Positions 4,634-33,771 are shown, numbered from the stretch's first letter. The stretch: 64,000 nucleotides of DNA from Novosphingobium sp. (GCA_031422595.1 JANPMA010000299.1:3003-67002), one strand, 5' to 3'. Notes: generated by a model not told the origin, from the letters alone. Translations and numbers: made by a program.

Positions 4634-4637
4634 GCCG

Positions 4638-17637: not shown

Positions 17638-18513
17638 ATGGCCAGCGCCCCGCGCCCGTCCCGACAAACTGCGCGCCAGCTTACGGCCGATCACGAGGGC
17701 TTCCTGCGTCACCGCAATTTCCGTTGGCTCAAGCACGCGGGCGCACTGTGCGTTGTCGCCATCCTTGCCTACACGCTGATCGATGTGTCGCCCCGCCCGA
17801 ACGGCGGGACCTGGCTGGGGTACACGCTCGGCACCGTCGGGCTCGTGCTGATCGTCTGGCTCTCGCTGCTGGGCGTGCGCAAACGGACAATGACGCGCGG
17901 TGCCTGGTCGCTCAAGGCCTGGACCTCGGCCCACGTCTATCTTGGTCTCGCGCTGATCGTGATTGCCACGCTGCATACCGGCTTTGAATTCGGCTGGAAC
18001 GTCCACACCCTGGGCTATGCGCTGATGCTGTTGGTGATCGCATCGGGCCTGTTCGGGGTCGTGGTCTATTCCGTGCTGCCCGCGGCGCTCAGCAATAATC
18101 GCGAGCAGATGACCCAGCCGCAGATGGTCGAAGCACTCAGCGCGGTCGACCGCCAGCTACAAAGCGCCGCGCAGCCGCTCGATCCGCACTGGGCCGGGCA
18201 GGTCCTCGCCGCGCTTGGGGAGGGAGCTTTTGCCGGCGGCCTGTGGAGCCGGCTTGCCGGAGGCAAGCACGGCAGTGCGACCCAGCAGGCGATCGCCGCG
18301 TTCGACCTTGCCAGCACAGAAGAAGCCGCCGATCCGGCACTGGTCCGGGTCGAAGCGCTGCTCCAGCGCCGTGCCGCGCAGCTCGCCCGGATGCGGCGGC
18401 ACATGCGCCTCAAAGCGCTGCTTGAGGTTTGGCTCTACGTCCATGTCCCTGCAACCTTCGCTCTGATCGCCGCCTTAACCGCGCATGTGATCAGCGTGTT
18501 CTACTATTGGTAG
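17638..18513 (+). CDS. Polytopic inner-membrane protein, possible b-type cytochrome / electron-transfer subunit
   Basis: The ATG directly follows the upstream stop (TGAATG). There are about 5 TM helices. His residues inside helices (SAHVYLGL..ATLHTGFEFGWNVH; YVHVPATF..LTAHVISV) make haem-b ligation plausible but unproven. Confidence 0.55.
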   Translation: MASAPRPSRQTARQLTADHEGFLRHRNFRWLKHAGALCVVAILAYTLIDVSPRPNGGTWLGYTLGTVGLVLIVWLSLLGVRKRTMTRGAWSLKAWTSAHVYLGLALIVIATLHTGFEFGWNVHTLGYALMLLVIASGLFGVVVYSVLPAALSNNREQMTQPQMVEALSAVDRQLQSAAQPLDPHWAGQVLAALGEGAFAGGLWSRLAGGKHGSATQQAIAAFDLASTEEAADPALVRVEALLQRRAAQLARMRRHMRLKALLEVWLYVHVPATFALIAALTAHVISVFYYW

Positions 18514-18528
18514 GGGCGGGGCAGGGGC

Positions 18529-20226
18529 ATGATCTTTCGGCTCAGAACCGTCGAGACCACCGCCCAGGGCCGCGAAATCGTGCGCGACCGCGACGTTACA
18601 GCGGAGCGGATCACCCTTGGCCGTTCGGCGGACAACACGCTGCACCTGCCCGATCTCGCGCTCGATCCGTACCACGCGGCAATCACGGCGAGCGGCGGCA
18701 GGATCGCCATCGAGGCCCTCGGGTCGCCGGACTTCACTCTCGATGGCCGGCAGGTCAGCGAGGGTACGATCGATCCGCAAGCCGGCGGCGAGCTGCGCTT
18801 TGGCAGCTATCGCATTGCAGTTTCCGAGGCCGAGGATGCAGCGGTTCTGCTCACGATCGGTCAGATCGCCGAGGCATCAGGCACTTCGGAGGAAAAGTCC
18901 GGTTTCTCGCTTGCCGGACGAATGCCGGGCAAGCGGGCAATGTCGTGGCTGCTTGCGCTGGCGATCCTCGCCGCCTTTCTTGTCCTGCCGATCGTCAGCC
19001 AGATGGCCCGCGATCCCGCCGCCAAACAGGGCGTGCTGGGCGACGCGGCGTGGAGTTCGGGTCCGCTTAGCCAGGCGCACCATCAGCTCGAAGGCAAATG
19101 CGAGGCCTGTCACGTCAAGCCGTTTGAAGCGGTGCGCGATACCGCTTGCCTGACCTGCCACAAGGATGTCCACGAGCATGCTGCGCCCACCCGACTGGCC
19201 AATGCCCGCGGGCCTGACGGCTTGGGCGATCGGTTGCAGTGGCAGATCGCGCATTTGTTTGGCAAACCCGGCCCCGGGGCCTGTTCGGATTGTCATTCCG
19301 AACACCAAGGCGCCGGGCGCATGCCGCCGCCGCAGCAAGCCTTTTGCGCCGACTGCCACGGCTCGCTCAAGGATCGCCTGCCCGACACCGCACTTGGCAA
19401 CGCCGCCGATTTCGGCAAGGTGCATCCCGAATTCCGCCCCGCGCTGGCGCTGACTGCGGGCAGCGACAGGTTGACCCGGGTCTCGCTCGCCGAACATCCG
19501 CGCGAGGCGAACGGGCTGACCTTCACCCATGACCAGCACCTCGATCCGCGCGGCGGGGTGGCCCAGATGGCGCTGCGGCTTGGCATGGGGAGCGGCGGAC
19601 TGGGCTGCGCCGCCTGTCACCACCCAACCGCCGACGGGGTCCGCTTCCTGCCGATCGACATGGAGCGTGACTGCGAGGGATGCCACAGCCTGGCCTATGA
19701 CAAGGTCGGCGGTACCTTCCGGCGTCTGAAACACGGCGATACCGACCAGATGATCGCAGATCTCTCGGTCGCGCCGCGCGCGTCCAGTCCAATCGTGACC
19801 GGACGGCGGCGGCCCGGCGACTATGCCAATGGCGGAACCTATTTCGCCCGCTTCACGCCGCCGGGCGGGGGGATCGGATCGGTCGCGCAGGCCCTGTCGC
19901 GCGACGGAATCTGCGGCGAATGCCACACCCCGCGATTGGCCGGCGGGCGTTTCTCGGTGGTGCCGGTGACCCAGACCACGCGTTATTTCAATCACGGCTG
20001 GTTCAACCATGCGGCGCACAAGGAGGAAAAGTGCACCAGTTGCCACGCCGCGGATCGTTCCAACTTGGCGACCGACCTGCTGCTCCCCGATCTCAAATCG
20101 TGCCGCAGCTGTCATTTGGGCGAGGAAGCCCCGCGCGCCAAGGTTCCCTCGACCTGCGCAATGTGTCACGATTATCATCTCAAGCCGCTGGCTCCGCGCG
20201 GGGTCGAACCGCGACGAAAGCGATGA
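18529..20226 (+). CDS. FHA-domain / single-TM / decahaem c-type cytochrome
   Basis: N-terminal FHA-like region (ITLGRSADNTLHLPDLALDPYHAAI). One TM (WLLALAILAAFLVLPIV). Ten CxxCH motifs follow: CEACH, CLTCH, CSDCH, CADCH, CAACH, CEGCH, CGECH, CTSCH, CRSCH and CAMCH. Confidence 0.85.
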   Translation: MIFRLRTVETTAQGREIVRDRDVTAERITLGRSADNTLHLPDLALDPYHAAITASGGRIAIEALGSPDFTLDGRQVSEGTIDPQAGGELRFGSYRIAVSEAEDAAVLLTIGQIAEASGTSEEKSGFSLAGRMPGKRAMSWLLALAILAAFLVLPIVSQMARDPAAKQGVLGDAAWSSGPLSQAHHQLEGKCEACHVKPFEAVRDTACLTCHKDVHEHAAPTRLANARGPDGLGDRLQWQIAHLFGKPGPGACSDCHSEHQGAGRMPPPQQAFCADCHGSLKDRLPDTALGNAADFGKVHPEFRPALALTAGSDRLTRVSLAEHPREANGLTFTHDQHLDPRGGVAQMALRLGMGSGGLGCAACHHPTADGVRFLPIDMERDCEGCHSLAYDKVGGTFRRLKHGDTDQMIADLSVAPRASSPIVTGRRRPGDYANGGTYFARFTPPGGGIGSVAQALSRDGICGECHTPRLAGGRFSVVPVTQTTRYFNHGWFNHAAHKEEKCTSCHAADRSNLATDLLLPDLKSCRSCHLGEEAPRAKVPSTCAMCHDYHLKPLAPRGVEPRRKR

Positions 20227-20242
20227 CAGAGGGGCTGTGCCG

Positions 20243-21100
20243 ATGCTGATCGCCCAGATTACCGATTGCCATATCGGCTTTTTCCGCAGCGACGTCGGCG
20301 GAGCCAATACGCGGCGATTGCGCGCCGCGCTCGACCGGCTGCGCGATGGCCCCAATCGCCCCGATCTGCTCCTGCTCTCGGGCGATCTCACCGAATTCGG
20401 CGATGCGGCGAGTTACGCACGGCTGGCGGCAATGCTGGCCGACCTGCCCTTCCCGGTTCACCTGATGGTCGGCAACCACGATGACCGCGATGCCCTGCGC
20501 GCGACCTTTCCGGGGACGCCATTGGACCGGGGCTTCGTGCAATATGTTCTGCCCCTGCTCGGTTTGCGCCTGATCGCGCTGGATACGCTCGAGCCGGGGC
20601 GCCACGGCGGCGCCTTCTGTGCTGAGCGGGCCAAGTGGCTGAACGACCAGTTTGATGCTGACCCGGCGACTCCGGTGGTGATCGCAATGCATCATCCGCC
20701 GCTCGCCTCCGGGCTCGACTGGCTCGACGGAGCTGAGGACGCGCCATGGATCGCCCGCTTCACCGAGGCAATCGCCGGACGCCCGCAAGTGCGCGCGATC
20801 CTTGCCGGACACCTGCACCGCACAATCCACGCCAGCGTTGCGGGCGTACCGCTGACGGTCTGCCCCTCAACCGCGCCGACTGTCGCGCTCAACCTGAACC
20901 CGATCGACCCCGAGCGGCCCGATGGCCGGGCGATGATCGTCGATGAACCCGCGGCATTTGGCTTGCACCGCTGGAACGGCGAACGGCTGATATCGCATTT
21001 CGAGAGCCTGTCCGCCGGGCATCCCTGGGCCGTGCTCGCCAGCTACGATGCGGGGATGCAGGAACTGGTGCGCCAGAACGTCCGCGAGCAGCGCGACTGA
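20243..21100 (+). CDS. Class III cyclic-nucleotide phosphodiesterase (CpdA/Icc-type metallophosphoesterase)
   Basis: Ordered motifs ITDCH, LSGDL, VGNHDD, AMHHPP and AGHLH correspond to D-x-H / GD / GNHD / H / GHxH. The gene comes last in the plus-strand operon. GTG at 20237 is an alternative start. Confidence 0.8.
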   Translation: MLIAQITDCHIGFFRSDVGGANTRRLRAALDRLRDGPNRPDLLLLSGDLTEFGDAASYARLAAMLADLPFPVHLMVGNHDDRDALRATFPGTPLDRGFVQYVLPLLGLRLIALDTLEPGRHGGAFCAERAKWLNDQFDADPATPVVIAMHHPPLASGLDWLDGAEDAPWIARFTEAIAGRPQVRAILAGHLHRTIHASVAGVPLTVCPSTAPTVALNLNPIDPERPDGRAMIVDEPAAFGLHRWNGERLISHFESLSAGHPWAVLASYDAGMQELVRQNVREQRD

Positions 21101-21110: not shown

Positions 21111-24100
21111 TCATCGCCCCGCGCGCCAGGCGCTCATTTCCCCATTGTCGTTGACTCTGTAGAGCAAGCCGCTCCGGTTCAGGAACAACCGCTCCATCTC
21201 GGGCCGGGTGAAGGGGCGGGAGCCAAGCCGGCCGAACACCGCGATCTGCCCGCCGGTTTCATCCACCGCGCGGTCGCGGTCGAGGCCCTTTGACATGGCA
21301 ATGGCCGGAGAAGGGGTCTTCGCCCAAGCGATCAACTCGGGCATCGGCGCGGGCGAAAAGCCGTAGAAGTTGCGCTGGCTTTCCGGCGAGGTCAGCTGCA
21401 GCACTTTCATCCCGTTGCGGCCGTCGGCGACGTAAGCGATCAGCGAGGCATTGGTCGAGGCGACCACCACGTCCTCGGCATCGTTTAGCTGCCCGTCGAA
21501 AGTCACCTTCTGGTAGATTCGTGGGCTACGTGGACGCGTAACATCGACGATCACCAAGCCATCCGCCTTGGCCGCGACATAGGCATAAGTCCGTGCAACA
21601 TAGACCCGCCGCGCATCGGCAAGCGGCACCGTCGCCTCGGGCACCGCCAGCGGTTTTCGCAAGTCAGTCACGTCGAACAACTTGAGCCCGTCGCGGTCGG
21701 TGACCCACAGGTAACGGAATTGCAGCGCAGAGGCGCGCGCGTCGACCAGTTCGCGCACCGCAGCGAGCCGGGGTTTGAGCGGATCGGACAGATCGACGAC
21801 GACCAGACCCTTGGTGGCGGTGATGTAGGCCACCTCACCCGCCAGCACGATATGCCGCGCCCCGTTCAGCACGCCGTCGGGGTTCCAGGTCACCGCGCGG
21901 TGCAGCTTGTTGTTGCGGAATTCACCGTCGGAGAAAGTGTCCACATCGACCAGGATCAACCCTTCGACGCTGTCGGTGATGGCCGCGTAGTTGTAGATCG
22001 GCAGGAACGGCTGCTCCTGGTTGACGTCGCGCATCATCTGGGTGTTGCGTTCAGGCGCGATCGGCTGGTTGGTCGGCAGCGCCATGCAGGTCGCGTCAGC
22101 GGTATCGACCTGGGCATCGCCGGCAAACGGGGCCGAGATGATCGGATCGGCAAAACCCTTGTTGGCAATTGCCGCGACGTCATAGACGTGGAAGCCGCCC
22201 TTACCCTGCGCGACAAACATGTATTCGCCGCGCAGTTGCAGGCACCCGACCTTGTCCGGCGTGCCTTGCACGACGTTGCGGAACTGTTCGACCGGATGAC
22301 TGTCCCCCCCGCCAAGCGAAGCGGTGGTCTTGCCGCGTGTCCAGTTCTTGAGCTCGCGGCTGTTCTGCTCAACGTGCATCCGATAATAATCGGGATAGGC
22401 GTAGCGTTGCAGGTAGGACCCGATCACCGCCTGCGGTTCGTCCCATTCGGTCACCCGCACCGCCTCGAGTCCGCCATCGAGCCCGGTCCAGGCATTGAGC
22501 CCGACGAAGTTGACGTAGTTGGTCCCGAGCAACAGCGTCTGTGCCATGATTGCATTGTTGTCCTCGTTCATGCTGACGTGGCAATCGCTGCAAGTCTTGG
22601 TCTCCTGCGTGCGGACAGTGTGCGCAAAATGCGGTGCGAAGGCCTGGCTTGAAAAGCCCGGCGAGCTGATTGGCGGTTGTTGGGCGTAGATGCGCTCGCG
22701 GCTGCTGTTGGTTGAAGACAGAATAAGCGCAGAAGACGATCTGACCGGCGACACCAGGCCGCCCTTGGTGGTCATGTGCTTGCCTAGTTGGAACATGTCG
22801 TCGCGCGCCACTTGCGGGTTGTAGGTCGCAAAATTGCGCGTTTCCTCCCCCTCGAAACGGTTCACCGAGCTTTTCCAGTTGGCCTCGATCGGCAAGTGGC
22901 ATCCGCCGCAACTGGTGGTCCAGGCAAGGTGACACGAGAAGCAGGCGATCTTGTCGTCCTGGTGCGCACGATCTGCTTTGGGCACACCGGGTCCGAAGCC
23001 GAAACTGCCATCATCCGCCCCCGACCGGCTCATCAGCTTGGCGCGCGCCGACTTGTGGTTGAAATAGGGCGATGCCGGATCGACGCTGTCCTTGGTCAGA
23101 TGCACCTGCCACGACAGGCCCGGATCGACGATCGAACGCTGGATCAGCACCCTTCGGCCAAACTCGTTGTTGACCCATTCAAACCGGCGCTGACCATCCG
23201 GGTTGCGGAGCAAGGCCAGATTGTTGCCTTTGGGCGGTGCGGCAGGCCCCGAGGTCAGCAGCTTGGGATAGGCTTCGGCGGTGCCGTGACAATCAGCGCA
23301 GCCGATCTCCACCGCATTTGCGACTTCGCCGTAGATCAGCCCGTTGCCATGGCTGTCCTGCGCAAAGTGGCAATCGGCGCATTGCATGCCCTTCTCGGCG
23401 TGGATGTCCATCAGGTGTACGGTCTTGCCCGGGTTGACCCCTGGTTGAACGAATTTCCCCTGCCCCTGGGTGCGCCATTTCTCGGGATCGTCGGGTGCGA
23501 CAATATGCGCCTTGTCGGTCCCCCAAGTTGCCATCGAGCCTCCCGCATCGAGCAGGTTTCCGGCCCGGTCGCGCTTGAACACGCCACGGAAATTCCAGCC
23601 GTGGCTGTGATAGTCGGCAAATTGGGTATCCTTGAGACCGGCATTGAGATCGTAAACGTTGCGCAGAAAATCGAGATCGCCCCACAGGCCGCTTGCGGCT
23701 GCACCTTCGGGGTTGCGTTCGTTGATCGAGCGGATCGTCGCAGCATCCGGATAGCGCTGATGCTTGTACAGGCGCTCATAATCCGCATCGCTCATCCCCG
23801 GCGGGCGCGGACTACGGTTTTCGGGGCCTGGCCACATCGAGGACGCGTCGGCCTCATAATCCCACATCGTATAGCCAAGGAACGAATTCACGAACACGTT
23901 GGGCTGATGCATATGGCAACTCATGCACTGTGCAGTCGGGATCGCGCGGGTGAAGACGTGGCCGAGCGGATGCCCGGATTCCTTGTCCGAGCCGGCATCC
24001 GACGATCCATGATCACCTTTGAGCCGGCCGTGATTACCGGTCTTGCTGGTGATGGTCGGATCGACGGTCACGCTCTGTCCGTCGCGCCCAAATTGCGCAT

Positions 24101-25157
24101 AGATCGAGCTGTGGCGCGGTTCACGGTCGTTGGCGTAGATCACATGGCAGCCCGAGCAGCCCGATCCGCGATAGTCGCCGGGCTGGTCGTTGGTCCCCAT
24201 GAACCACATGAAAGGATCGTTGAGCCTGGTCTTGTGGATGTTGAGCACCGGGATGGCGACCCTGAGGCCGGTCCCGGGACCGCGGTTCGATTGTTTGAGA
24301 TCCGGGCGTCCCGGTTCTTCCAGCCGCTGGATTGATCCAGTCGGATTGGGCAAGCCGACCTCGGCAAAGCCGGTGCCATTGTTGCGCCCCCCGTCCTCGA
24401 ACACCCGGAACACGTCACCCGGGGGCACTACATTCCAGCGCGGCAAGGGATAGAGCGCAGCCAGCGCCCCGCGCGCCGCCTGACGCTTGCTCAGCGTTCC
24501 AGGCGCAACCACCTTGGCCGGCTTGCCGTCGCGGGTATAGGCTTCGCCGAAGACGTAGTTCTTGAGCGGGACGATCCCGTTGTTATAGGCCGCGCCGCCC
24601 CACAGCATCGCCCCGCTCGACATCAGCGAGCGCTCGGCCGCTTCGATTGTCGGTAAATGACACGCACCGCAAGCTTCGCGGGCGACTCGGTAATCGCCCG
24701 GATTGACGAACCGGATAAACTCCGGCGCCTCGCGATTGAGCAGTGAATAGCTGCGTTGCGGGTTGGCGGATGAAGGGAAATGCCAAGCCCCGGGATATTG
24801 CGGCAGCACATGCGCGCGGTCACGCATCGCGGTGTAGGTGGAGTCATCGCGCGGCAGCGAGGGATTTCCGAGAATGCTTGCATCGCCGCCATGGCAGTCG
24901 GTGCAGCCCAGTCGCACCGCGGGCGATACGTGCATGGTCGGGGCTTCGGTCTTGACGTGGCACGACTGGCAGCCATCGGTCTTGGCAGCTGCCTGCTGTT
25001 CGGTTTGCTTTGCCGGGGCCGGTGGAGCCGTCACCAGCGCGTAGTTACGGACAATCTGCTTCTCACCCTCACTGGCCCGGATGCCGGAGGAATGGAGCAA
25101 GACGGCCATGGCGCAGGTCAATGTGGCAAGAGCCAGCAGGGCGCGCTGTATCGGCAT
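21111..25157 (-). CDS. Secreted decahaem c-type cytochrome fused to a C-terminal LVIVD-repeat beta-propeller
   Basis: 1348 aa with a signal peptide (LALATLTCAMAVLL). Ten CxxCH motifs: CQSCH, CTDCH, CGACH, CSGCH, CMSCH, CADCH x2, CFSCH, CGGCH and CSDCH. The last ~450 aa carry about six LVIVD-type repeats (GLILVDVD, GLVVVDLSDP, GLKLFDVTDL, GLVIVDVTRP, GMKVLQLTSP). Confidence 0.85.
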   Translation of the reverse strand: MPIQRALLALATLTCAMAVLLHSSGIRASEGEKQIVRNYALVTAPPAPAKQTEQQAAAKTDGCQSCHVKTEAPTMHVSPAVRLGCTDCHGGDASILGNPSLPRDDSTYTAMRDRAHVLPQYPGAWHFPSSANPQRSYSLLNREAPEFIRFVNPGDYRVAREACGACHLPTIEAAERSLMSSGAMLWGGAAYNNGIVPLKNYVFGEAYTRDGKPAKVVAPGTLSKRQAARGALAALYPLPRWNVVPPGDVFRVFEDGGRNNGTGFAEVGLPNPTGSIQRLEEPGRPDLKQSNRGPGTGLRVAIPVLNIHKTRLNDPFMWFMGTNDQPGDYRGSGCSGCHVIYANDREPRHSSIYAQFGRDGQSVTVDPTITSKTGNHGRLKGDHGSSDAGSDKESGHPLGHVFTRAIPTAQCMSCHMHQPNVFVNSFLGYTMWDYEADASSMWPGPENRSPRPPGMSDADYERLYKHQRYPDAATIRSINERNPEGAAASGLWGDLDFLRNVYDLNAGLKDTQFADYHSHGWNFRGVFKRDRAGNLLDAGGSMATWGTDKAHIVAPDDPEKWRTQGQGKFVQPGVNPGKTVHLMDIHAEKGMQCADCHFAQDSHGNGLIYGEVANAVEIGCADCHGTAEAYPKLLTSGPAAPPKGNNLALLRNPDGQRRFEWVNNEFGRRVLIQRSIVDPGLSWQVHLTKDSVDPASPYFNHKSARAKLMSRSGADDGSFGFGPGVPKADRAHQDDKIACFSCHLAWTTSCGGCHLPIEANWKSSVNRFEGEETRNFATYNPQVARDDMFQLGKHMTTKGGLVSPVRSSSALILSSTNSSRERIYAQQPPISSPGFSSQAFAPHFAHTVRTQETKTCSDCHVSMNEDNNAIMAQTLLLGTNYVNFVGLNAWTGLDGGLEAVRVTEWDEPQAVIGSYLQRYAYPDYYRMHVEQNSRELKNWTRGKTTASLGGGDSHPVEQFRNVVQGTPDKVGCLQLRGEYMFVAQGKGGFHVYDVAAIANKGFADPIISAPFAGDAQVDTADATCMALPTNQPIAPERNTQMMRDVNQEQPFLPIYNYAAITDSVEGLILVDVDTFSDGEFRNNKLHRAVTWNPDGVLNGARHIVLAGEVAYITATKGLVVVDLSDPLKPRLAAVRELVDARASALQFRYLWVTDRDGLKLFDVTDLRKPLAVPEATVPLADARRVYVARTYAYVAAKADGLVIVDVTRPRSPRIYQKVTFDGQLNDAEDVVVASTNASLIAYVADGRNGMKVLQLTSPESQRNFYGFSPAPMPELIAWAKTPSPAIAMSKGLDRDRAVDETGGQIAVFGRLGSRPFTRPEMERLFLNRSGLLYRVNDNGEMSAWRAGR

Positions 25158-27046
25158 CAGAAGGAGAATACCGTGTTGAGCAGCACTGAATAGTACCTGT
25201 TGTGGCGCTGCGCATTGTCGAACAGATCCTGAAACCCGCTGCCGGGGAGCAGCGCCGCAGCTGAGAGTCGCACGACGATGTTCTGCGTCGCTTTGGGCCG
25301 CCAGATCGTCGAGAGCGACAGGTCCCAGCCGATATCTCTTGGAATGCTGCCCTCATTCCGCAGATCCTGCAGCGTTGCGGTGTTGGCGAACCAAAGATGA
25401 TTTGCATTGACCGAGAGACGATAGGTCGGCCTCAGGTCGAAATCGCCGCCCAGCCCGACCAGCACCGTTCCGGGACTGTTGAAATTCGACTGGCCCTGTT
25501 CTTTGGACGAGCGCAGCGAATTGAGCACGCCATTGCGCCCGTTAAGCGCGACCGCCCGGCCGCCGCCGGCAAAGGGAATTGTCTGGCGAATCCAGTAAGA
25601 GGTGTCCGCCCCGGCAAAAACCGGGTTCTCGAACACTGCGTCGAAACCGCCTTCGGTGTTGTCACGCGGGCTACCGTCACCGCTGGCATAGAGTGCCGAG
25701 AGGCGGAAGCGTTTCCAGTCCTTGTCGTACGACAGCTCGCCTGCTGCAAACCCTGCCTGGATCTTGGCCCGGCTGCCGGTGAAGAAGCTGTTCCGATCCT
25801 GCCCCAGCGCGAGATAGGTCGATCCGGTAAAGCCGAAGCGGCCAATCCGGCCGTCGGTGTTGTAGCCGAGATAGACCACATCGTAATCGCGTCCGCGCAG
25901 CGTGCCCAGCAATGCGGGCCGCACCGGGAACCCGTTGTCGTCGACCTTGATCCGGCCACCTTCGCGATTGCGGTTGTAAATCACGGTCAGCTGGCTGGTC
26001 AGCGCGGGAAGCGGAAAATCCTGGCGATAGAGATTGGCAACGAACACCCAGTCATTGCGCGGGCGCTCGGTCACGTTGTTGAGCCCCGAATTGGTGTCCT
26101 TCTCCAGCCGCCAGAAAGCAGCGAGGTTGTATTGCCAGCGGTTGCCGTCGCGGTTGCCGAAGAAGCGCACACCAAGTTGATTATCGTTGAACAGAAAGCC
26201 GCGAAAATCGGACTGGAATGGCTGAATTCCAACCCGCACCGAATCGAAATCATAGCGCACCGAGACGTTGCGCAGGTGGTAGTCGACGAACAATTCCTGG
26301 AGGCCGACGAAGTGGTCGGCGCGGTGGCTCGGTTTCGAGGGATCGACCGACAGCACCCTCCGCTCAGGCACGTCGACGTAGTTGAAATTGAACCCCAGCG
26401 CGATCCGGTATTCGATTTCGGGCGGCTTGAATGCGGTGTTGCCCTTGGTCAGCGAAGCCCCGACCAGGAAAGTCTGCGAAAAGACATAGCTCGCACCCTT
26501 GCCGAACACATCGAGGCTACCGGGTCGCTCGGTGGTCTGGACGCCGACCGGGATCGGGAACGTGCGCGGCTCGAGCACCGTGTCCGAGACCAGACTAAGC
26601 GTCAGAAACCAGTCATCCCCCTTCAGAAATCCGGGCCGCTTGCCCTCGGACAAAGGCAGATCGCCCTTGAGCAGGTTCTGGTGAAAGGGATCACGCTTCG
26701 AATGGCAGACCTGACGCAGATTTGGATAGAGCCTGAGCAGCGACTGGTCGGCCCCCTTGGCCGGGCACAAGCCGGTCATGATCCGCCAACGATCGGGCAC
26801 GGGAATCTGATCTGTCGGGAAAGCCTCGGGTGGAGGCGCTCGCACCGCGCCGGGGTTATCCTGCGAAACCGGCTCGGGCAAGCTGCGCTCGAAGCCCGGT
26901 CGGCGGCGGCCTTCGATCACCTGAGGGTCGACTTCCGGCGGACTTGCAACGTCGGAATCGGCGACAGGTGGCGACGGTGGAGGGGGCGGTCCCGGATTCG
27001 CCGCCTGGGCCAGCAGCAGCGGCAGCAAAAGCGCGCCCGCCCCCAT
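25157..27046 (-). CDS. Outer-membrane beta-barrel protein with a Pro-rich N-terminal linker (candidate porin partner of the cytochromes)
   Basis: 629 aa. A signal peptide is followed by NPGPPPPPSPP... The body is rich in G/Y/N/D/F/R and has an alternating-strand character. It ends ...LLNTVFSF, a C-terminal Phe OMP signature. Its start and stop codons overlap both neighbours by 1 nt. Confidence 0.65.
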   Translation of the reverse strand: MGAGALLLPLLLAQAANPGPPPPPSPPVADSDVASPPEVDPQVIEGRRRPGFERSLPEPVSQDNPGAVRAPPPEAFPTDQIPVPDRWRIMTGLCPAKGADQSLLRLYPNLRQVCHSKRDPFHQNLLKGDLPLSEGKRPGFLKGDDWFLTLSLVSDTVLEPRTFPIPVGVQTTERPGSLDVFGKGASYVFSQTFLVGASLTKGNTAFKPPEIEYRIALGFNFNYVDVPERRVLSVDPSKPSHRADHFVGLQELFVDYHLRNVSVRYDFDSVRVGIQPFQSDFRGFLFNDNQLGVRFFGNRDGNRWQYNLAAFWRLEKDTNSGLNNVTERPRNDWVFVANLYRQDFPLPALTSQLTVIYNRNREGGRIKVDDNGFPVRPALLGTLRGRDYDVVYLGYNTDGRIGRFGFTGSTYLALGQDRNSFFTGSRAKIQAGFAAGELSYDKDWKRFRLSALYASGDGSPRDNTEGGFDAVFENPVFAGADTSYWIRQTIPFAGGGRAVALNGRNGVLNSLRSSKEQGQSNFNSPGTVLVGLGGDFDLRPTYRLSVNANHLWFANTATLQDLRNEGSIPRDIGWDLSLSTIWRPKATQNIVVRLSAAALLPGSGFQDLFDNAQRHNRYYSVLLNTVFSF

Positions 27047-29028
27047 TACAAGCCTTGGCAGACATTCTGCGCGTCGCTGCCGATAAACGGCGCGAAGGGA
27101 CAGCTGACATAGCGCAGCCGCGCCGACGCGCCGCCACCAAGGTCGAAGACAAGCGTATCGGCGCGAACCGCTGCAGGCGCATTGCCGAGCGTGCCCAATG
27201 CGGTGGCAGCGTTGTTCAGCCCCAGGAACGCAATCATGTCATCCTGATCGATACCGTCTCCCGAAACCCCAATCGCCCCGATCAGCTTGTTCCCTCGATA
27301 GACTGGCACTCCGCCGGCAAAGATCTGTATTCCGTTCTGCAAGCGATTTTGGCCGGGCGTTGCATCGGGAATGAAGCTGCACCGTGCCGGGGTATCGATG
27401 CCGCTCGCACCGGCGACATAGTTCAGGTGCTGGCCCAGGTTGGACAGCACCAGCGCGGATTGCAGCCCGGTCGAGAACGGGCTCCACTTCGCAATCGGGC
27501 GCGACAGGGGTCCGTTGGGACGCGCGACCTCGCCATCGGGAAAATACGGCCGTGACAGGTTACCCATCGCGCGGGCAGACAGCGCCAACTGCCCGGTAAG
27601 CGCGGCCGGATCGGCGAAGAAGCTGCGCATCGCAGGAACGAAGCTGCGCACATCGGGGCTGGGATCGGCCAGCAGCTGCGCGGCGGCGTTGGGATTGGTG
27701 AAGAAGGCCGCCGTGCGCGCCTTCTGCAACGACACGTCGATTCCAAACACGGGTGCATCGGGTGAGCGGACCAGCCCCAATGGCACACCGCGTGTGTCGA
27801 CGAGCGCAATGGTCACTTGCGCCCGGCTGTCGAGCGGCTGCCGGATCTGGGCTCGGGCATGGGCCATCGTGCTGAATGCCTGCTCGAGAATGCGTTGCGA
27901 TTCGAGTGCACTGATCGGCGTGCCGACTTCGGCGCCGTCACTGCCCGCGCGCAGCGGAAAGCGGTTGATGCCCGAGCCGTCGCTCAGGACGAACGCATCG
28001 CCGGTGGTAAACTCGGCAGCGGTCGCCGGGCGCACCCCGGATGCTTCGCTGCCATATGCTGCGCCAGACAGGACCGCCGCGACAGGGTAATAGCCGGTCA
28101 CCGGGGTCAACCCACCCAATGCCGGAACGGTAGCGGCATAGGTCGCCCCGGCCAGATTGGTCAGGTTGGCATAATCGGTGTCGGTATAACGCAGCAAAGT
28201 GCCGTCGACCGAAATCCGGTTCGCGCGCACATCGACTGGCGCTTCAAACCCGACGGTGCCGGCCAGACCACTGCGCTCGTCGGTGTCGCTGTCGACATCG
28301 AGCACATTCGGGTCAAAGCCATAAACTCCATCGCCCGAAACGCCGACCCCGCCGACGACCACCCCGTTCTTGTACAGCGGGAAGCCGCCTGGATCGGCCG
28401 AAAGCCCCAGCGGCGAGCGCTTTGGTCCGATCATGTTGGCCGGACCGGGTGCCAGCCTCGCGGCGAGGTCGGAACAGGGCAATTGGCTGAATTGTACCCC
28501 GAACAACGGGCCGCTCTCCAGCCCGACGGTCGAGGGTGCAGGCGGAAAGCGCTGCTGCACGATCATGCTTGCGGTGCGCGTGGAAAAAGCGTTGCCGCTG
28601 CTCGAAAGGTAAGCCCCGGTGATCGCCTTGGCGATCGCGGCGGCTTCGGCCGGCACGTTCAGGCCCTGGATGTCCTGCTGTGAACCATCCATCGCTTTCG
28701 GTATCGCGGCGAGAGCAGGAGCACCCGTCATACGCAGCATGGCGAGCACATTGCCGACCCGGTCAGTTACCGCGATCACTGCCGGACGGTTGTCCGCATG
28801 CGCCTGCGCAGCGGCCTCAGCCAAGACCTTTTGCACGTCCGCAACCGAAAGCGATTCCGCAGCCGGAGCGGTATAGAATGATCCCGCCGTCGGGGGCGGA
28901 GATGGAGAAGGAGTCGGGGTAACACCGCCGCCCCCGCCCGAGCCGCCGCTGGCCCCTCCACCGCCGCCACAAGCAGCAAGGTTGAGCAAGGCAATCCAGC
29001 CCAGAATCTGCGCCGCAAGCTTCTTCAT
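27046..29028 (-). CDS. Lipoprotein with two GlcG/HbpS-type (DUF336) putative haem/corrinoid-binding domains
   Basis: Lipobox LNLAAC is followed by a Gly/Ser/Pro linker. Domain 1 is around PAVIAVTDRVGNVLAM. Domain 2 is IALVDTRGVPLGLV...FAGGVPVYRGNKLIGAIGVSGDGIDQDDMIA, the canonical DUF336 C-terminal motif. Confidence 0.75.
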   Translation of the reverse strand: MKKLAAQILGWIALLNLAACGGGGGASGGSGGGGGVTPTPSPSPPPTAGSFYTAPAAESLSVADVQKVLAEAAAQAHADNRPAVIAVTDRVGNVLAMLRMTGAPALAAIPKAMDGSQQDIQGLNVPAEAAAIAKAITGAYLSSSGNAFSTRTASMIVQQRFPPAPSTVGLESGPLFGVQFSQLPCSDLAARLAPGPANMIGPKRSPLGLSADPGGFPLYKNGVVVGGVGVSGDGVYGFDPNVLDVDSDTDERSGLAGTVGFEAPVDVRANRISVDGTLLRYTDTDYANLTNLAGATYAATVPALGGLTPVTGYYPVAAVLSGAAYGSEASGVRPATAAEFTTGDAFVLSDGSGINRFPLRAGSDGAEVGTPISALESQRILEQAFSTMAHARAQIRQPLDSRAQVTIALVDTRGVPLGLVRSPDAPVFGIDVSLQKARTAAFFTNPNAAAQLLADPSPDVRSFVPAMRSFFADPAALTGQLALSARAMGNLSRPYFPDGEVARPNGPLSRPIAKWSPFSTGLQSALVLSNLGQHLNYVAGASGIDTPARCSFIPDATPGQNRLQNGIQIFAGGVPVYRGNKLIGAIGVSGDGIDQDDMIAFLGLNNAATALGTLGNAPAAVRADTLVFDLGGGASARLRYVSCPFAPFIGSDAQNVCQGL

Positions 29029-30380
29029 CGCAGCGCACCGATCGCATTGACAGCTTGCCGCAGCGCTGCCCGAAAAGCACCCGGATCATATTCTGCAGGA
29101 CTCGCTACGGCGGCGTAGGCACGGTTGATGCTGGCGCGAATCCCGGCTGCGGCGCCGACCGTGACCCGGCCCTCGCGGACCAGCAGGTTGAGCAGCGTAT
29201 CAACTGCCATCACCGACTGGGCCGACCCGGCGTAGTCGGTGAAGCGAACCGAGATTGCCCGCCCCCCGATCGCTGCGATGACCTGGAAAGCAGTATCGCT
29301 ACCGCCCGGCCCGCGCGCAACCGCGTCTCCGAGCGCACTTGCCGCTGCAACCAGCCGGCCCGCTGCAGCCACCGCCTCCGGGCGCCCTTTTTCCATCGCG
29401 GCGTGGAAATTGCGGGCGGCTGCATCGAACTGCGCGGCTTCGCGCGGCGCCAGAACCTGGGCCACGGCCGAGAGCATGATGATGTTCTCATCGTTGAAAG
29501 GCGGTTGACCGAATGGGATCGGCCGAGCCGGATTTGTCTCAAACGTCCGCGCCCGCTGCGGATTGTCGTCGATCCCGCGATGGCAGCTGTGGCAATCGTA
29601 AAAGGTGAATTCCGGGAATATCCCGTTGCTGGCCAGGTCTGACTGCCGAAACAAGCTGAGCGAGCGCTGTACTGCCTCGGCCTGTCCCACCGCCCACAGC
29701 CGGACGCTGTCGTTCGAGGGCTTACGCGCGGTGTAGTCGGCGTCCACGTCCCAATGCTGTTGCAGCGAGGAGAACAGGTCGAGTTCGAACGAAAGCCGGG
29801 GATGTCCCGCTGCCATCATCGCATGCGTTACGAACTGGCCAGGCTTGCCGCTGCCCAAATGGCAATCGAGACAAACCGCAGCGCGCACCTTGGGGTTGTC
29901 GAGCGCGCTCATGCCGCCAGCCACGTTGCCAGCATGGCTCGCCCCAACCGCATAGTGACTGGCAATCCAGCCCGATGCCGGGCCGTGGCAGCCTTCGCAG
30001 CCCACCCCGTCGGAAATCAGGAAGCGGTCGCCGCGCGCGCCTGCCGGGGTGGCATGGCAACCGAGGCAAGCCGCCGCCGAGCCGGCCCGGCCAAGCCCCA
30101 GAGTGCTTGCGATCCGTTCACCGCGCAGCGATACAAGCGCCGCGTAGGTACGGCTGTGTGCGCCGCCCCGCGACGCGGGTTCCTGCCACAACCTGAGTTC
30201 ATCCTGGCGGACAACCTTGCCATCACCATCAGCACGGCCGTGGCAGGTCGAACCGGCGCAGTTGGCGACGCCTTCATAGCGGCCGGAAGCGAGGGCTGCT
30301 CCAGTTGCCGCGCCGGCAAGCGCAGCCATGCCAAGCAGCGCAGCCAGCCTGCGACGAACGGCAGTTCCGAAAGTCGGCAT
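29025..30380 (-). CDS. Secreted multihaem c-type cytochrome (c554 / multihaem family-like)
   Basis: I chose the ATG at 30380 because GGAGGG lies 4 nt upstream. Signal peptide is LAALLGMAALAGAATGAALA. Motifs are CLGCH, CEGCH, CLDCH and CHSCH plus a CAGSTCH (Cx4CH) site. The stop overlaps the next start (ATGA). Confidence 0.8.
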   Translation of the reverse strand: MPTFGTAVRRRLAALLGMAALAGAATGAALASGRYEGVANCAGSTCHGRADGDGKVVRQDELRLWQEPASRGGAHSRTYAALVSLRGERIASTLGLGRAGSAAACLGCHATPAGARGDRFLISDGVGCEGCHGPASGWIASHYAVGASHAGNVAGGMSALDNPKVRAAVCLDCHLGSGKPGQFVTHAMMAAGHPRLSFELDLFSSLQQHWDVDADYTARKPSNDSVRLWAVGQAEAVQRSLSLFRQSDLASNGIFPEFTFYDCHSCHRGIDDNPQRARTFETNPARPIPFGQPPFNDENIIMLSAVAQVLAPREAAQFDAAARNFHAAMEKGRPEAVAAAGRLVAAASALGDAVARGPGGSDTAFQVIAAIGGRAISVRFTDYAGSAQSVMAVDTLLNLLVREGRVTVGAAAGIRASINRAYAAVASPAEYDPGAFRAALRQAVNAIGALR

Positions 30381-30491: not shown

Positions 30492-32348
30492 ATGGGCACA
30501 GGTTTGCGAATGATGATACGCCGCCTGCCGGGCGGGCGCTGGCTAGCGCTGGCAGCCGTATTTGCACTGCTGGCATTCGCCGATTACGGCAGGATCGATG
30601 CGACCCGGATCATCGACCAGCGCGGTGGAGATCTGCTGCTGGCACTTAACGCGCAGCGCAGGCCGCAGTCCGACCAGGTCGTGATCGTCGATATCGATCA
30701 GAAATCGCTCGAAGACATGAATGACGATGCCGGTTCCTGGCCCTGGCCGCGCTCGGTTCATGGCGAATTGATCGAGCACATTGCAGCGCAAAAACCGCAG
30801 GCCATCGTGTTCGATATATTGTTCAACGAACCTGACGTGTTCCGGCCCGAACACGATGCCGCGTTCGCCGCTGCGGTGGCGCAGCATCCCAACGTCTGGC
30901 TGGCGATGACGCTCAATTCAAACGGTACTGGCGCGGTGGTTAGCGATCTGCCGCCGGCGGTCGGGGCTCGGCCGATTGGAAATCCGAGACCCGGTACCCG
31001 GTTACCGATCATGCTGCCGCTGGTGGTTGCGCAATATCCCGAAGCGATGCGCGGCGGGCTGATCAATTTTACCCCTGACAGCGATGGAACCGCGCGGCAC
31101 CATCAGCTCCAAACCGATCGCGACGGCTGGCGCTTTCCCTCGCTGGCTGCACGCGTGACCGCTGATGCTGGACGCTCGCTGCCCGATACCAGCCAGGTCA
31201 TGCTCAACTGGCGCAGCGGGTGGCGGCACTTGTCCTACTCAAACGTCTACCTCGACAGTCTGCGGCGCCAATCGCAGCGACCAATGGACGAGTTCAAAGG
31301 CAAGATCGTGGTGATCGGCACCGCCGCACCAGGCCTGACCGATTTTCGCGTGGCCCCGCTCGGAAGCACTTACCCGGGGGTCGAGATCCTCGCCACTGCG
31401 CTTGACAACCTAGCCCGAGGCGACTGGCTGCGCGAGGTACGGCGGCCAGGCATGCTGCCCCTGGCCCTTGGGTTGATCGGCTTGTTGGCGCTGGGCTTTA
31501 CCCGCAACGTCAGCCCGCAACGCCTGTTGTTGGCGATGATCGCGATAACACTTGCTGCCATCGCAACGACCTGGCTGATCCTTGTTAGTGGCACGTTCGT
31601 GCCAGTATTTGGCGCTTTGGCATTTGGCTGGGTCTATTACCTGGTCGCAAGCGGTCTTGCCTACCTCGACGAGCGCGCCCGACGGCTCCGGACCGCCAGC
31701 CTGTTTACCCGCTTCCTCGATGCGCGCGTGGTTGCCGAGTTGATCGACAAGGGTGAGATCGACTTCCGGCAGCAGGCCCAGTCCCGCGAGATTTCGGTGC
31801 TGTTCTCGGACATCCGAGGGTTCACCGCATTGTCCGAAGTGTCCGCGCCGGAAGCCGTAGTTGCGATGCTCAATGACTATTTCTCACGGCAGGTGGGGGT
31901 GATCTTCGCGCATGGCGGGACGCTCGACAAATTCATCGGCGATGCGATCATGGCGTTCTGGGGCGCGCCTGCTGCGCAAGAAGATCACGCCGCCCGGGCA
32001 ATTGCCGCCGCGCTGGAAATGTCGGAGACGCTGGAAGGGCTGCGCGCACAGCTTGGCGGCATCGGTGCCGATCTCGAAATCGGCATCGGAATCCACTCGG
32101 GCGGCGCAGTTGTCGGGCTGATCGGATCGAAGGACCGGCTCGACTACACCGCAATCGGCGACACGGTAAACCTCGCCAGCCGGGTCGAGAGTACGACCAA
32201 GGGAATCGCCCGGGTACTGATTACCGAAGCGACCCGCGCTGCGGCCGGCGATATGTTCGAATACCGCGACTGCGGCGTACACCGGGTCAAGGGCCGCGCG
32301 GAAGGCGTTCGCCTATTTGAACCCTTCCGCAAAGCTGTTACGCTCTGA
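30492..32348 (+). CDS. CHASE2-sensor class III adenylate/guanylate cyclase (cyclase 1)
   Basis: An N-terminal TM is followed by a periplasmic CHASE2-like region (VVIVDIDQKSL...WPWPRS), about 3 further TMs and the catalytic domain (VLFSDIRGFT, DKFIGDAIMAFWGAP, DYTAIGDTVNLASRVES). The start could instead be the ATG at 30510. Confidence 0.85.
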   Translation: MGTGLRMMIRRLPGGRWLALAAVFALLAFADYGRIDATRIIDQRGGDLLLALNAQRRPQSDQVVIVDIDQKSLEDMNDDAGSWPWPRSVHGELIEHIAAQKPQAIVFDILFNEPDVFRPEHDAAFAAAVAQHPNVWLAMTLNSNGTGAVVSDLPPAVGARPIGNPRPGTRLPIMLPLVVAQYPEAMRGGLINFTPDSDGTARHHQLQTDRDGWRFPSLAARVTADAGRSLPDTSQVMLNWRSGWRHLSYSNVYLDSLRRQSQRPMDEFKGKIVVIGTAAPGLTDFRVAPLGSTYPGVEILATALDNLARGDWLREVRRPGMLPLALGLIGLLALGFTRNVSPQRLLLAMIAITLAAIATTWLILVSGTFVPVFGALAFGWVYYLVASGLAYLDERARRLRTASLFTRFLDARVVAELIDKGEIDFRQQAQSREISVLFSDIRGFTALSEVSAPEAVVAMLNDYFSRQVGVIFAHGGTLDKFIGDAIMAFWGAPAAQEDHAARAIAAALEMSETLEGLRAQLGGIGADLEIGIGIHSGGAVVGLIGSKDRLDYTAIGDTVNLASRVESTTKGIARVLITEATRAAAGDMFEYRDCGVHRVKGRAEGVRLFEPFRKAVTL

Positions 32349-32362: not shown

Positions 32363-32860
32363 GTGGAGGTTATGCGAAGCACACGCGTCATCCTCATCGC
32401 CGCGATTGCCCTGCTGTCCTGGACTGCGGCCCGGGCCAACGAACGCGGCGTGGTGATCCGTGCAGGCGATCTGTTTGCCGAACCCTTCGTCGATGCAGCC
32501 AAGATCGGTCCGCTCGCCAGCAATCAACCGGTGACGATTATCGAGCGCAAAGGGGGCTGGCTGGCGGTCGAAGTCGCTGGTCGGCGCGGTTGGGTGCGGA
32601 TGCTCAATGTCCGACTGGAAGCGCCGGCAAGACCGGCAGCCAACACAGCTGCGCTGCGCACCGGTAGCACAGGGCGCACGGTAGCGACCGGGGTAAAGGG
32701 TCTTGACGAAATCGACATTCGCAATGCCTCGGTCGATCGTGACCAGCTGGCGCAGCTTGGCCAGCTGGCTGTAAGCAGCGACGACGCGCGCCGTCGCGCC
32801 GTTCTGGACAACCTCAAGGAAGCCAAGGTCGACTATCTGAAACCGGGGAAGGTCAAGTGA
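32363..32860 (+). CDS. Periplasmic bacterial SH3-domain protein
   Basis: A signal peptide is followed by an SH3_3-like segment (VIRAGDLFAEP...VTIIERKGGWLAVEVAGRRGWVRMLNV). The stop overlaps the next start. Confidence 0.6.
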   Translation: MEVMRSTRVILIAAIALLSWTAARANERGVVIRAGDLFAEPFVDAAKIGPLASNQPVTIIERKGGWLAVEVAGRRGWVRMLNVRLEAPARPAANTAALRTGSTGRTVATGVKGLDEIDIRNASVDRDQLAQLGQLAVSSDDARRRAVLDNLKEAKVDYLKPGKVK

Positions 32861-33771
32861 TGCGCGCGCCCCACCCACTTTGGACCTTGGCGGTCATCTG
32901 CGCCTTGGTATCGACTTCGGCTTCGGCCCAGTTCGGTCCGCTGGGCAGCATTCTGGGCAAAGCTCGGTCGGCTCAGAAAATCGGCGAAGGACTGCGTAAC
33001 ATCAACGAACAGGAAGAGATCAAGATCGGCGGCGATCTGGCCGGAATGCTGCTTGGGGCCGCGCCGTTGCTCAAAGATCCGGCCAAGCAGCACTATCTCA
33101 ACACGCTCGGCGGATGGCTGGCGCAGCACAGCGAGCGGCCCGGATTGCCATGGAAGTTCGGCATCGTCGACAGCAATGATTTCAATGCATTTTCAACCCC
33201 GGGTGGCCACATCCTGATCACCCGCGGACTGTTCGATCGCATGCGCAACGAGAGCGAGCTGGCCGGAGTTCTGGCGCATGAGATCGCGCATGTCGTGCGC
33301 AAGCACCACCTCCAGGCGCTCCAGAAAGGTTTGCGCGAACAGTCGCTGAACGAAATGCGAAATTATTTCTCCGTTTCGACTGGAAGCGGGCTTGGCGACC
33401 GGTTCGCGAGCGCCATGCTTAGCGCCGGCAAGGATATGTATATCCGCGGCCTCGACCGGGACGATGAATACGAAGCCGACCGGATGGGCGTGGTGATCGC
33501 AGCCCGGTCGGGCTTTTCGCCTTACGGGCTGGTCGGCGTGCTCCAGACCCTGACCGCGACCACCGACGAGAAGGGCTATGGACTGCACAACCGGACCCAT
33601 CCGCTGCCGCTCGACCGGCTGGCGCATCTGGATGCGGCAATGGGTACGCGGTTTGACAGCATGCAAGGTCTGGTCGACGATGTGCCGAGCTTCGTAACCC
33701 TGCGCAATCCGCCGCCGATCGCGGCCCCGCCGGCACGAACGGCCAAGCCGAAGCGGCCCAAGCGTCCATGA
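32857..33771 (+). CDS. M48-family zinc metallopeptidase (periplasmic)
   Basis: Signal peptide, then FNAFSTPGGHILITRGL followed by HEIAHVVRKHH (HExxH). Both start and stop overlap the neighbouring genes. Confidence 0.8.
   Translation: MMRAPHPLWTLAVICALVSTSASAQFGPLGSILGKARSAQKIGEGLRNINEQEEIKIGGDLAGMLLGAAPLLKDPAKQHYLNTLGGWLAQHSERPGLPWKFGIVDSNDFNAFSTPGGHILITRGLFDRMRNESELAGVLAHEIAHVVRKHHLQALQKGLREQSLNEMRNYFSVSTGSGLGDRFASAMLSAGKDMYIRGLDRDDEYEADRMGVVIAARSGFSPYGLVGVLQTLTATTDEKGYGLHNRTHPLPLDRLAHLDAAMGTRFDSMQGLVDDVPSFVTLRNPPPIAAPPARTAKPKRPKRP

Follow-up and report, generated by a model that had tools for sequence, protein, structure and literature searches.

The four-gene operon and its adjoining block

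We analyzed 64,000 nucleotides (nt) of Novosphingobium sp. DNA (GCA_031422595.1 JANPMA010000299.1:3003-67002; hereafter the window), in which four minus-strand genes, labelled A to D, occupy positions 21111-30380. They encode two multihaem cytochromes, a lipoprotein and an outer-membrane barrel, and appear to form the outer half of an electron-transfer system that is conserved and counts about nine genes.

A, 29025-30380, minus strand, 451 amino acids (aa): c554-like cytochrome, exported, with an Ala-rich helical C-terminal half
B, 27046-29028, minus strand, 660 aa: lipoprotein with two HbpS/GlcG (DUF336) domains, each with a large insertion, and a Gly/Ser/Pro tether
C, 25157-27046, minus strand, 629 aa: outer-membrane beta-barrel
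D, 21111-25157, minus strand, 1348 aa: exported decahaem cytochrome fused to an LVIVD beta-propeller

A first-pass annotation of this DNA had placed four genes with overlapping stop and start codons here, and all open reading frames and the three junctions were confirmed: A and B share ATGA (4-nt overlap), B and C share TAATG (1 nt), and C and D share TGATG (1 nt). The 1-nt C/D overlap is kept in 92 of 153 loci and 84 of 119 loci have an A/B overlap of either 1 or 4 nt, well above the ∼5% expected by chance for an in-frame start at a fixed position. No minus-strand terminator-like site was found inside A-B-C-D, which is a tight operon with probable translational coupling. The annotation had gone further and read the overlaps as implying stoichiometric co-production; this was overstated, since overlaps give an operon and probable coupling, not a 1:1 stoichiometry. 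Its statement that all four products carry export signals, one of them a lipobox, agrees with the LAAC motif of B and with hydrophobic, signal-like N-terminal segments in A, C, and D, judged by inspection and a crude hydropathy scan.

The operon is widespread. A GTDB scan with one genome per species returned at least 222 relatives of D, the best 80 of which belong to Sphingomonadales, with some Caulobacter, Brevundimonas, Phenylobacterium, and Rhizomicrobium. The order A-B-C-D on one strand was present in every locus of this D-anchored scan with enough upstream DNA, and a C-anchored scan of metagenome contigs added 80 further loci with the same order, bringing the synteny to ∼150 loci in all from two independent anchors. 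The metagenome scan, run with a diverse C alignment, gave close relatives only; the distant contexts described below came from contigs encoding C relatives. In the cultivable Sphingobium herbicidovorans the whole system lies on the 959-kb conjugative replicon pMSHV (locus L167; NZ_CP020539.1 801035-818464), where RefSeq names for the genes, B6S01_RS18410-18455 in strain MH, are generic (“cytochrome c family protein”, “heme-binding protein”, “hypothetical protein”, and “multiheme c-type cytochrome”).

The four genes thus travel together, but the boundaries drawn around them were too narrow: a TPR-N1-N2-N3-N4 block at 14131-21100 belongs to the same system.

TPR protein, 14131-15051, minus strand: CcmH/CycH TPR-like (Pfam PF23914, 4.5e-17), divergent from N1; candidate cytochrome c maturation helper
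N1, 15193-17637, plus strand: cytoplasmic FAD/NAD(P)H oxidoreductase of pyridine-nucleotide-disulphide type with two cyclic-nucleotide (cNMP)-binding domains and 4Fe-4S dicluster domains (Pfam, NCBIfam)
N2, 17638-18513, plus strand: membrane protein with five transmembrane (TM) helices and two H-x13-H pairs; candidate di-haem b transmembrane electron carrier
N3, 18529-20226, plus strand: cytoplasmic FHA domain, one TM helix (134-162), and periplasmic decahaem domain (10 CXXCH)
N4, 20240-21100, plus strand: CpdA/SpdA-like metallophosphoesterase (Pfam Metallophos); candidate cyclic-nucleotide phosphodiesterase

N4 is convergent with D, 10 bp from the D stop, and scores 157 bits against SpdA and 71 bits against CpdA in NCBIfam, both under cut-off. 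N1-N4 accompany A-B-C-D in most loci. The TPR gene stands beside N1 in 38 loci, and of the 28 loci that lack it, most stop within ∼2 kb past N1. N2 has no Ferric_reduct match in Pfam; its His99/113 and His269/283 are invariant across Alphaproteobacteria, Gammaproteobacteria, and Acidobacteriota, and in the last of these groups a cNMP/4Fe-4S protein carries the N2 domain fused at its C-terminus.

Distant loci link the two blocks directly. In Nevskia (Gammaproteobacteria; L168), an A-like gene is followed by N1-N2-N3-C-D, contiguous and, A apart, co-directional, and L169 carries N3-C-D-A with overlapping junctions; neither locus has B, which is therefore dispensable in some lineages. L170 has C-D, and L171 has B together with C-D. 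Identities to the window proteins at distant loci are 42–58% for D (in Gammaproteobacteria, Acidobacteriota, and two metagenome contigs), 37–41% for C, ∼35% for A, and ∼27% for N3. D directly follows C in every lineage examined (Alphaproteobacteria, Nevskia, Acidobacteriota, and the two metagenome contigs), and this pair forms the core that does not vary.

In two distant members of the C family, an N-terminal extension has four CXXCH motifs and is a class III (c3) tetrahaem cytochrome domain (Pfam Cytochrom_CIII). This fused form was listed in 120 protein clusters, the named ones being Acidobacteriota, mostly Blastocatellia. We read five acidobacterial loci, and each has a c3-barrel fusion with 36% identity to C, a divergent HbpS-like gene with 39% identity to B, a cNMP-binding 4Fe-4S protein, and a D homologue, or fragments where it is split; that of L161 has 1377 aa, nine CXXCH, and 44% identity to D residues 51-1326. 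Four of the loci have an extra tetrahaem c3 and two multihaem proteins (8 and 9 CXXCH in L161), and in L166 a c3 is fused to the C-terminus of D. An FHA/cytochrome/4Fe-4S/Pyr_redox protein occurs in four, with the FHA part unseen in L166, while L165 ends before the expected position. The two designs are complementary: proteobacterial clusters have A and no c3 fusion, whereas acidobacterial ones have the fusion and other small cytochromes and no A.

Barrel C and decahaem-propeller D

C matched no family in Pfam or NCBIfam at permissive thresholds (Pfam E up to 10). Among 41 diverse relatives, Pfam gave no MtrB_PioB match in any, one weak Alginate_exp match (E 0.0094), and four N-terminal CarboxypepD_reg domains. 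The family is large, with 7361 protein clusters and no curated name; at 50% identity it comprises 1447 clusters at an E limit of 1e-3 and 396 at a limit of 1e-30. An AlphaFold2 (AF2) model built from 44 sequences was of modest quality, with a predicted local distance difference test (pLDDT) score of 60 and a predicted TM-score (pTM) of 0.64. It has 18 strands in residues 146-628, which follow a Pro-rich, disordered N-terminal segment of ∼120 aa, and the last residue of C is Phe. In a Foldseek search against PDB, AlgE ranked first (E 8e-15, TM-score ∼0.55–0.64 normalised to target), followed by 18-strand OccK/OprD channels, MOMP, and chitoporin. The likeness to AlgE, OccK, and OprD is one of structure and strand number, at 12–14% sequence identity, and C itself has no Alginate_exp (PF13372) match.

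The idea of an MtrB/PioB-type barrel did not survive this comparison: the profile check gave no PF11854 match, MtrB was absent from the top 50 Foldseek matches (AlgE and 16–18-strand porins), and C has 18 predicted strands rather than the 26 of MtrB, which we take to be the only barrel known from a structure to enclose a cytochrome. For a barrel meant to sheathe a cytochrome, 18 strands is a small number. The first-pass annotation had named, as evidence against its proposal, a barrel from a transport porin family with no cytochrome association; the porin part was found at the level of fold (AlgE, OprD) and not at that of family membership. The link it had drawn between barrel and cytochromes holds, given the acidobacterial c3 fusion and the unbroken succession of C and D.

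The most conserved stretch of the C family is a loop at residues 455-526 (window ∼25470-25685; FENPxFAGADTSYWIRQ ... SNFxNPG), modelled at pLDDT ∼30, which may plug or line the pore or form a binding site for D. C has no CXXCH. Its Cys94 and Cys114, in the periplasmic region at the N-terminus (residues 94-122, window 26680-26770; C-x19-C), are at least 90% conserved in sphingomonad homologues, the His after Cys114 is less so, and both Cys are lost in distant relatives. We rejected this pair as a haem site because its conservation is confined to the sphingomonad clade, which makes a disulphide likelier. An alginate or polysaccharide exporter was also considered and rejected, as no such genes lie nearby and the constant partner of C is D.

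D carries 10 CXXCH in residues ∼30-960 and a propeller at ∼960-1348 with at least six LVIVD-like blades by eye. The propeller matches LVIVD (PF08309) at 56.4 bits against a gathering score of 20.2, as the first-pass annotation had anticipated, and D also matches generic c3/c7 models. All ten haem motifs are CXXCH, invariant His residues are enough for bis-His ligation, and no candidate for a catalytic haem motif was seen. Across Sphingomonadales and Caulobacterales, D is 62–90% identical. In NCBIfam it reaches 64 bits against ExtM and 25 bits against choice-of-anchor B, both under cut-off; the ExtM equivalog model (NF040943) requires at least 800, and the acidobacterial homologue scores 86 bits, so that the relation to ExtM appears to be one of distant homology only.

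Measured against MtrC/OmcA, D has no conserved lipobox Cys and no PF22113 match. A lipoprotein nature of D in this genome was rejected, since homologues do not conserve the Cys of its signal region. Anchoring seems to vary among lineages. The D homologue of L170 has a possible lipobox. Three acidobacterial homologues (L161 12341-16474, L164 12399-16748, and L163 13973-16543) finish with a linker of low complexity, then a hydrophobic helix and a tail rich in Arg/Lys, and these are three of the four with a readable C-terminus (two full-length, one split). The tails resemble exosortase-type sorting signals, and the sorting-signal models of NCBIfam gave no match to them. These variable anchors, with the LVIVD and choice-of-anchor-B similarity, suggest that D may be located at the cell surface. 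In the acidobacterial homologues the third haem motif is CX4CH (CGTTECH) in place of CXXCH.

Proposed electron export and its alternatives

The reading we prefer, while giving it somewhat less than an even chance, is a cyclic-nucleotide-gated, NAD(P)H-fed electron-export chain ending at the outer-membrane C-D module. Cytoplasmic NAD(P)H would reduce the flavin of N1, and electrons would pass on through its 4Fe-4S clusters and cross the inner membrane via two b-haems bound by the four invariant His of N2, in a layout like that of NOX/ferric reductases. They would then enter the membrane-anchored decahaem N3, be shuttled by the c554-like pentahaem A, and arrive at barrel C and its obligate partner D. 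D would act as the terminal oxidoreductase, located at the barrel or on it, probably at its outer face, with the propeller binding a partner or substrate. B, on its long tether, may be an accessory lipoprotein, not needed everywhere, whose ligand is a small molecule or haem. Gating could come from cyclic nucleotides through the cNMP domains of N1 and the neighbouring cyclase and phosphodiesterase, with phospho-threonine signalling through the FHA domain of N3 as a probable second gate. The analysis shows the gene content, motifs, domain families, synteny, and gene fusions and a barrel-like model; in this scheme we infer the cofactor binding of N2, the order and direction of electron transfer, the location of D, the role of B, and the acceptor.

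Several observations are consistent with such a chain. The inner and outer blocks are joined in Nevskia (N1-N2-N3-C-D contiguous) and in L169 (N3-C-D-A overlapping), and A resembles a known electron-shuttle fold. The tetrahaem c3 fused to the acidobacterial C homologue ties the barrel to electron transfer and, together with the complementarity between A and the fusion, favours an electron path borne by the barrel over a mere solute channel. A cluster called ptd, compared below, has independently been read as a putative porin-cytochrome complex (10.1101/2023.11.21.568154).

Other points weigh against electron export. C is predicted to have only 18 strands and is closest to the substrate channels AlgE and OprD; its model is modest and leaves the conserved loop 455-526 unmodelled. 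D has a plain signal peptide in this genome, and the 64-kb window holds no type II secretion system or other export route for it. An AF2 model of its haem domain (residues 29-960; 66 homologues, 75–89% identical) reached only pLDDT 38 and pTM 0.27, and a Foldseek search with that model gave nothing meaningful. The D family profile found nothing significant among PDB sequences, the best being the octahaem nitrite reductase TvNiR at E 2.4; phmmer with D gave NrfA at E 0.45, which we did not use as evidence. At ∼1 haem per 90 residues and with very high conservation, D looks enzyme-like rather than like a surface “wire”. B is missing from some lineages, and the match to ptd is one of domain content.

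Some of these points lead to a different picture, in which D is a periplasmic multihaem enzyme that reduces or oxidises a soluble substrate, with a propeller that binds it or takes part in catalysis, C is an AlgE/OprD-like channel for that substrate, A and N1-N3 handle electrons, and B binds a substrate or cofactor. We consider this the main rival, though unlikely. It would suit the 18-strand solute and polymer channels that head the structural matches of C, the Sec-type signal of D with its missing lipobox, its low haem density, and its enzyme-like conservation, which extends within the order and across phyla over ∼1300 residues. The nearest solved relatives of B bind small molecules (EfgA, NahX, and haem-binding proteins). 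Set against it are the acidobacterial c3-barrel fusion, which is hard to fit with a pure solute channel; the strict C-then-D adjacency with its conserved 1-nt overlap, which suggests a physical pair; the choice-of-anchor/LVIVD surface-type features and variable anchors of D; and the ten CXXCH with His enough for bis-His ligation in place of a catalytic haem motif.

The Geobacter ext cluster bears on the same picture, as D is distantly related to ExtM and ExtN (64–86 bits). Both loci hold genes for a barrel and a lipoprotein along with several multihaem cytochromes, and the haem region of D is related to ExtM and ExtN/O; however, the scores are far under the family cut-offs (800 and 200), and the window has neither a rhodanese nor a selenoprotein. 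The ext cluster was formerly listed among putative conduits, yet ExtKL (MccSep) is a periplasmic pentahaem polysulfide reductase and not part of a conduit, and ExtI is a porin-like selenite uptake channel (PMC13510729, PMC5877670). ext is a cautionary precedent for reading such a cluster as a conduit.

Returning to the export chain, its proposed shuttle A had been annotated as pentahaem. A has four CXXCH motifs and one CAGSTCH (CX4CH), and C41, C46, and H47 of the latter are invariant in 12 homologues (50–72% identical to A), which makes five haem sites reasonable. It matches Pfam Cytochrome_C554 (PF13435) at 35.8 bits against a gathering score of 20.8, and its family profile matches Nitrosomonas c554 (PDB 1BVB, E 6e-7). 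With five haem sites rather than ten, and 16.6 bits against a cut-off of 192 for the MtrA/DmsE decahaem family (TIGR03508), A is not a member of that family. The RRR n-region of A raised the idea of a Tat substrate, which we rejected since c-type cytochromes mature following Sec export.

The identity of A also bears on direction. In nitrifiers, the oxidising enzyme HAO hands electrons to c554-type cytochromes, and electrons might flow inward here too: D would oxidise an outside or periplasmic donor (Fe(II), Mn(II), reduced humics, or an N or S compound) and electrons would reach the inner membrane via A and N3. The presence of ptd genes in nitrite oxidisers (10.1101/2023.11.21.568154) is in line with this, as is the fused cytochrome-barrel design known from the Fe(II)-oxidiser protein Cyc2 (cited in PMC9230427). 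The inner end, however, consists of a flavoprotein of NAD(P)H type that has 4Fe-4S clusters, and reducing NAD(P)+ from high-potential donors would run uphill. The conserved block contains no quinone- or oxidase-linked component, and the hosts are ordinary aerobic heterotrophs, all of which leaves inward flow improbable.

The annotation of B as a tandem GlcG/HbpS-type lipoprotein was borne out: it matches the Pfam HbpS-like family (PF03928) in four stretches with 94.4 bits against a gathering score of 25, its halves align with one another (E 3e-7) as two domain copies, and the LAAC lipobox followed by a Gly/Ser/Pro-rich tether recurs in ∼112 of 120 homologous loci. Sequence matches in PDB are EfgA (6BWS), 2A2L, and NahX. 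EfgA is a sensor and the HbpS family is haem-binding. Signalling genes also lie on the other flank of the operon, beyond A:

CHASE2 adenylate/guanylate cyclase, 30492-32348, plus strand: identified by Pfam, divergent from A; candidate regulator, loosely linked
Second CHASE2 adenylate/guanylate cyclase, 33768-36008, plus strand: identified by Pfam; candidate regulator, loosely linked

A CHASE2 cyclase occurs within 10 kb of the cluster in many, not all, loci, and homologues of the second one (55–61%) lie near it in several.

With DUF336 relatives that include EfgA and the HbpS family, the system could instead be mainly a redox or small-molecule sensor, in which haems and DUF336 domains perceive an envelope signal and relay it to cyclic-nucleotide and Ser/Thr-phosphorylation signalling. 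The density of signalling parts fits this: two cNMP domains in N1, the FHA domain of N3, the CpdA/SpdA-like phosphodiesterase, the nearby CHASE2 cyclases, and an FHA-GAF-cyclase and Ser/Thr kinase near the L171 cluster. Still, ∼25 c-haem sites with predicted b-haems, Fe-S clusters, and a flavin far exceed what a sensor needs, the cyclases are loosely linked only, and no transcription factor is conserved in the unit. We regard a sensor as the most improbable of the readings considered, and the remaining weight goes to some other explanation.

Known systems and surrounding genes

The closest described counterpart is ptdABCDEFG, found in marine Alphaproteobacteria and others and described in a 2024 preprint as a putative porin-cytochrome complex with a “completely unknown” function; it encodes a pentahaem cytochrome that bears a beta-sandwich (PtdA), the porin PtdB, an FAD/NAD(P) oxidoreductase (PtdC), a tetrahaem cytochrome (PtdD), a cNMP-binding 2x4Fe-4S protein (PtdE), a ferric-reductase-like membrane protein (PtdF), and a decahaem cytochrome (PtdG) (10.1101/2023.11.21.568154). 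Compared by description and domain content, N1 corresponds to PtdC plus PtdE, N2 to PtdF, and N3 to PtdG, and both clusters have a porin and a pentahaem cytochrome. The larger system, of which A-B-C-D look like the outer half, has in domain content already been sketched as the uncharacterised Ptd.

The differences are considerable. The Ptd description includes neither a DUF336 lipoprotein (B) nor a decahaem-propeller (D); PtdA has a beta-sandwich where A has a helical C-terminal half, and the A family profile matches the PtdA-like c552 5ZE8 weakly (E 0.0096). PtdC and PtdE are separate proteins, whereas N1 is a fusion, and N3 bears an FHA domain. The window cluster has no separate tetrahaem PtdD, although c3 tetrahaems occur in the acidobacterial versions, and the hosts here, Sphingomonadales of soil and fresh water, contrast with the saline-environment taxa of Ptd. 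Searching a plasmid collection with N1 returned Sphingobium replicons only and no Ptd-type locus. In literature searches on LVIVD, DUF336, or HbpS with multihaem cytochromes, on porin-cytochrome systems of Novosphingobium or Sphingomonadales, and on Ptd follow-ups, only the ptd preprint was found to describe such a cluster. The chain as a whole is uncharacterised.

MtrCAB, PioAB, and MtoAB follow a like logic, one operon encoding a multihaem cytochrome of the periplasm, a barrel in the outer membrane, a large cytochrome with ten haems, and also a lipoprotein. They differ in that C has 18 predicted strands and no MtrB_PioB match in Pfam, A is c554-like rather than MtrA/DmsE-like, D is not a lipoprotein and has no MtrC-domain match, and the lipoprotein B is not a cytochrome. 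The electron source here is apparently a cytoplasmic NAD(P)H flavoprotein and not a quinol dehydrogenase. The first-pass annotation had called the four genes a porin-cytochrome-like module with a composition unlike Mtr, Pio, Mto, or Pcc. A cytochrome-barrel module of unusual composition stands, and the lipoprotein and D differ as it had suggested, as do the barrel and A; the barrel is not Mtr-like, and the unit extends beyond four genes.

Cyc2 of Fe(II) oxidisers is a fused cytochrome-barrel protein and in this respect resembles the acidobacterial C homologues, with their N-terminal c-type cytochrome domain on a mid-sized barrel. In place of the monohaem domain of Cyc2, these homologues have a tetrahaem c3 (class III) one, 18 strands are predicted rather than 16, the C of the window has no haem motif, and no sequence relationship was detected. 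AlgE in turn differs in context, as no alginate or polysaccharide genes lie near C. Like NOX and ferric reductases, N1 and N2 would pass electrons from NAD(P)H via a flavin to two haems on paired His in two helices. Here, however, there is no Ferric_reduct match, the flavoprotein is separate, of pyridine-nucleotide-disulphide type with Fe-S clusters, and the acceptor would be a multihaem cytochrome and not O2 or Fe(III) directly.

Described conduits (Mtr/Pio/Mto, Geobacter Pcc, and Cyc2) come from specialists that respire or oxidise metals. The present system occurs in common aerobic heterotrophs and soil Acidobacteriota, with at least 222 matches among GTDB species representatives and thousands of protein clusters, and is very strongly conserved yet generically named in RefSeq. 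Its apparent electron source is cytoplasmic NAD(P)H rather than the quinone pool, with cyclic-nucleotide signalling parts around it. It is conceivable, if doubtful in our judgement, that it represents a third, unrelated whole-envelope electron-transfer architecture in aerobic heterotrophs, with a NOX-like exporter, ∼25 c-haems, an 18-strand barrel, a surface decahaem-propeller, and a cyclic-nucleotide switch, hosted by soil and water heterotrophs of Sphingomonadales, Caulobacterales, Nevskia, and Blastocatellia. If so, enzyme-driven extracellular reduction (of metals, humics, or O2 to superoxide) by bacteria that are neither respiratory nor “electrogenic” could have a molecular basis here. Depending on the acceptor and the location of D, the system would be either a new kind of electron export across the envelope, which would reach ecologically into iron and manganese cycling, extracellular reactive oxygen, and humic reduction, or a new family of multihaem enzymes that has its own porin. 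Cultivable hosts include Sphingobium herbicidovorans MH, Novosphingobium colocasiae, and Tsuneonella rigui.

Elsewhere in the window, genes for an SH3-domain protein (32363-32860) and an M48 peptidase (32857-33771) lie between the two cyclases and recur only in the closest relative, L081. A row of DUF4350, MoxR AAA+, DUF58, and SpoIIM-like genes (53448-58281; Bat/MoxR-type) lies 17 kb off, and its link to the cluster is probably coincidental; Bat genes are also found with the Tenderiales uet cytochrome cluster. Genes at 850-7255 encode an MFS transporter, a glyoxalase-fold dioxygenase, an FAA hydrolase, an FAD monooxygenase, and an aminotransferase (aromatic/amino-acid catabolism) and are unlinked to the cluster in other genomes.

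Around the distant loci, a caspase-like Peptidase_C14 gene and one for a CarboxypepD_reg/OMP_b-brl_4 outer-membrane protein stand beside the cluster in L161 (2917-9444) and L165 (934-7491). A truncated haemoglobin (Bac_globin) gene is present in three of the five acidobacterial loci (L163 6884-7366, L164 6626-7129, and L165 1-383), adjoining the HbpS-like gene in L163 and L164 and lying ∼7 kb away in L165, which hints at O2 or NO chemistry. In L171, the FHA-GAF-guanylate-cyclase gene and that of a TPR Ser/Thr kinase (1-1798) are separated by ∼6–8 kb from the HbpS-like gene and by ∼8 kb from the barrel gene, and they echo the theme of FHA and cNMP signalling.

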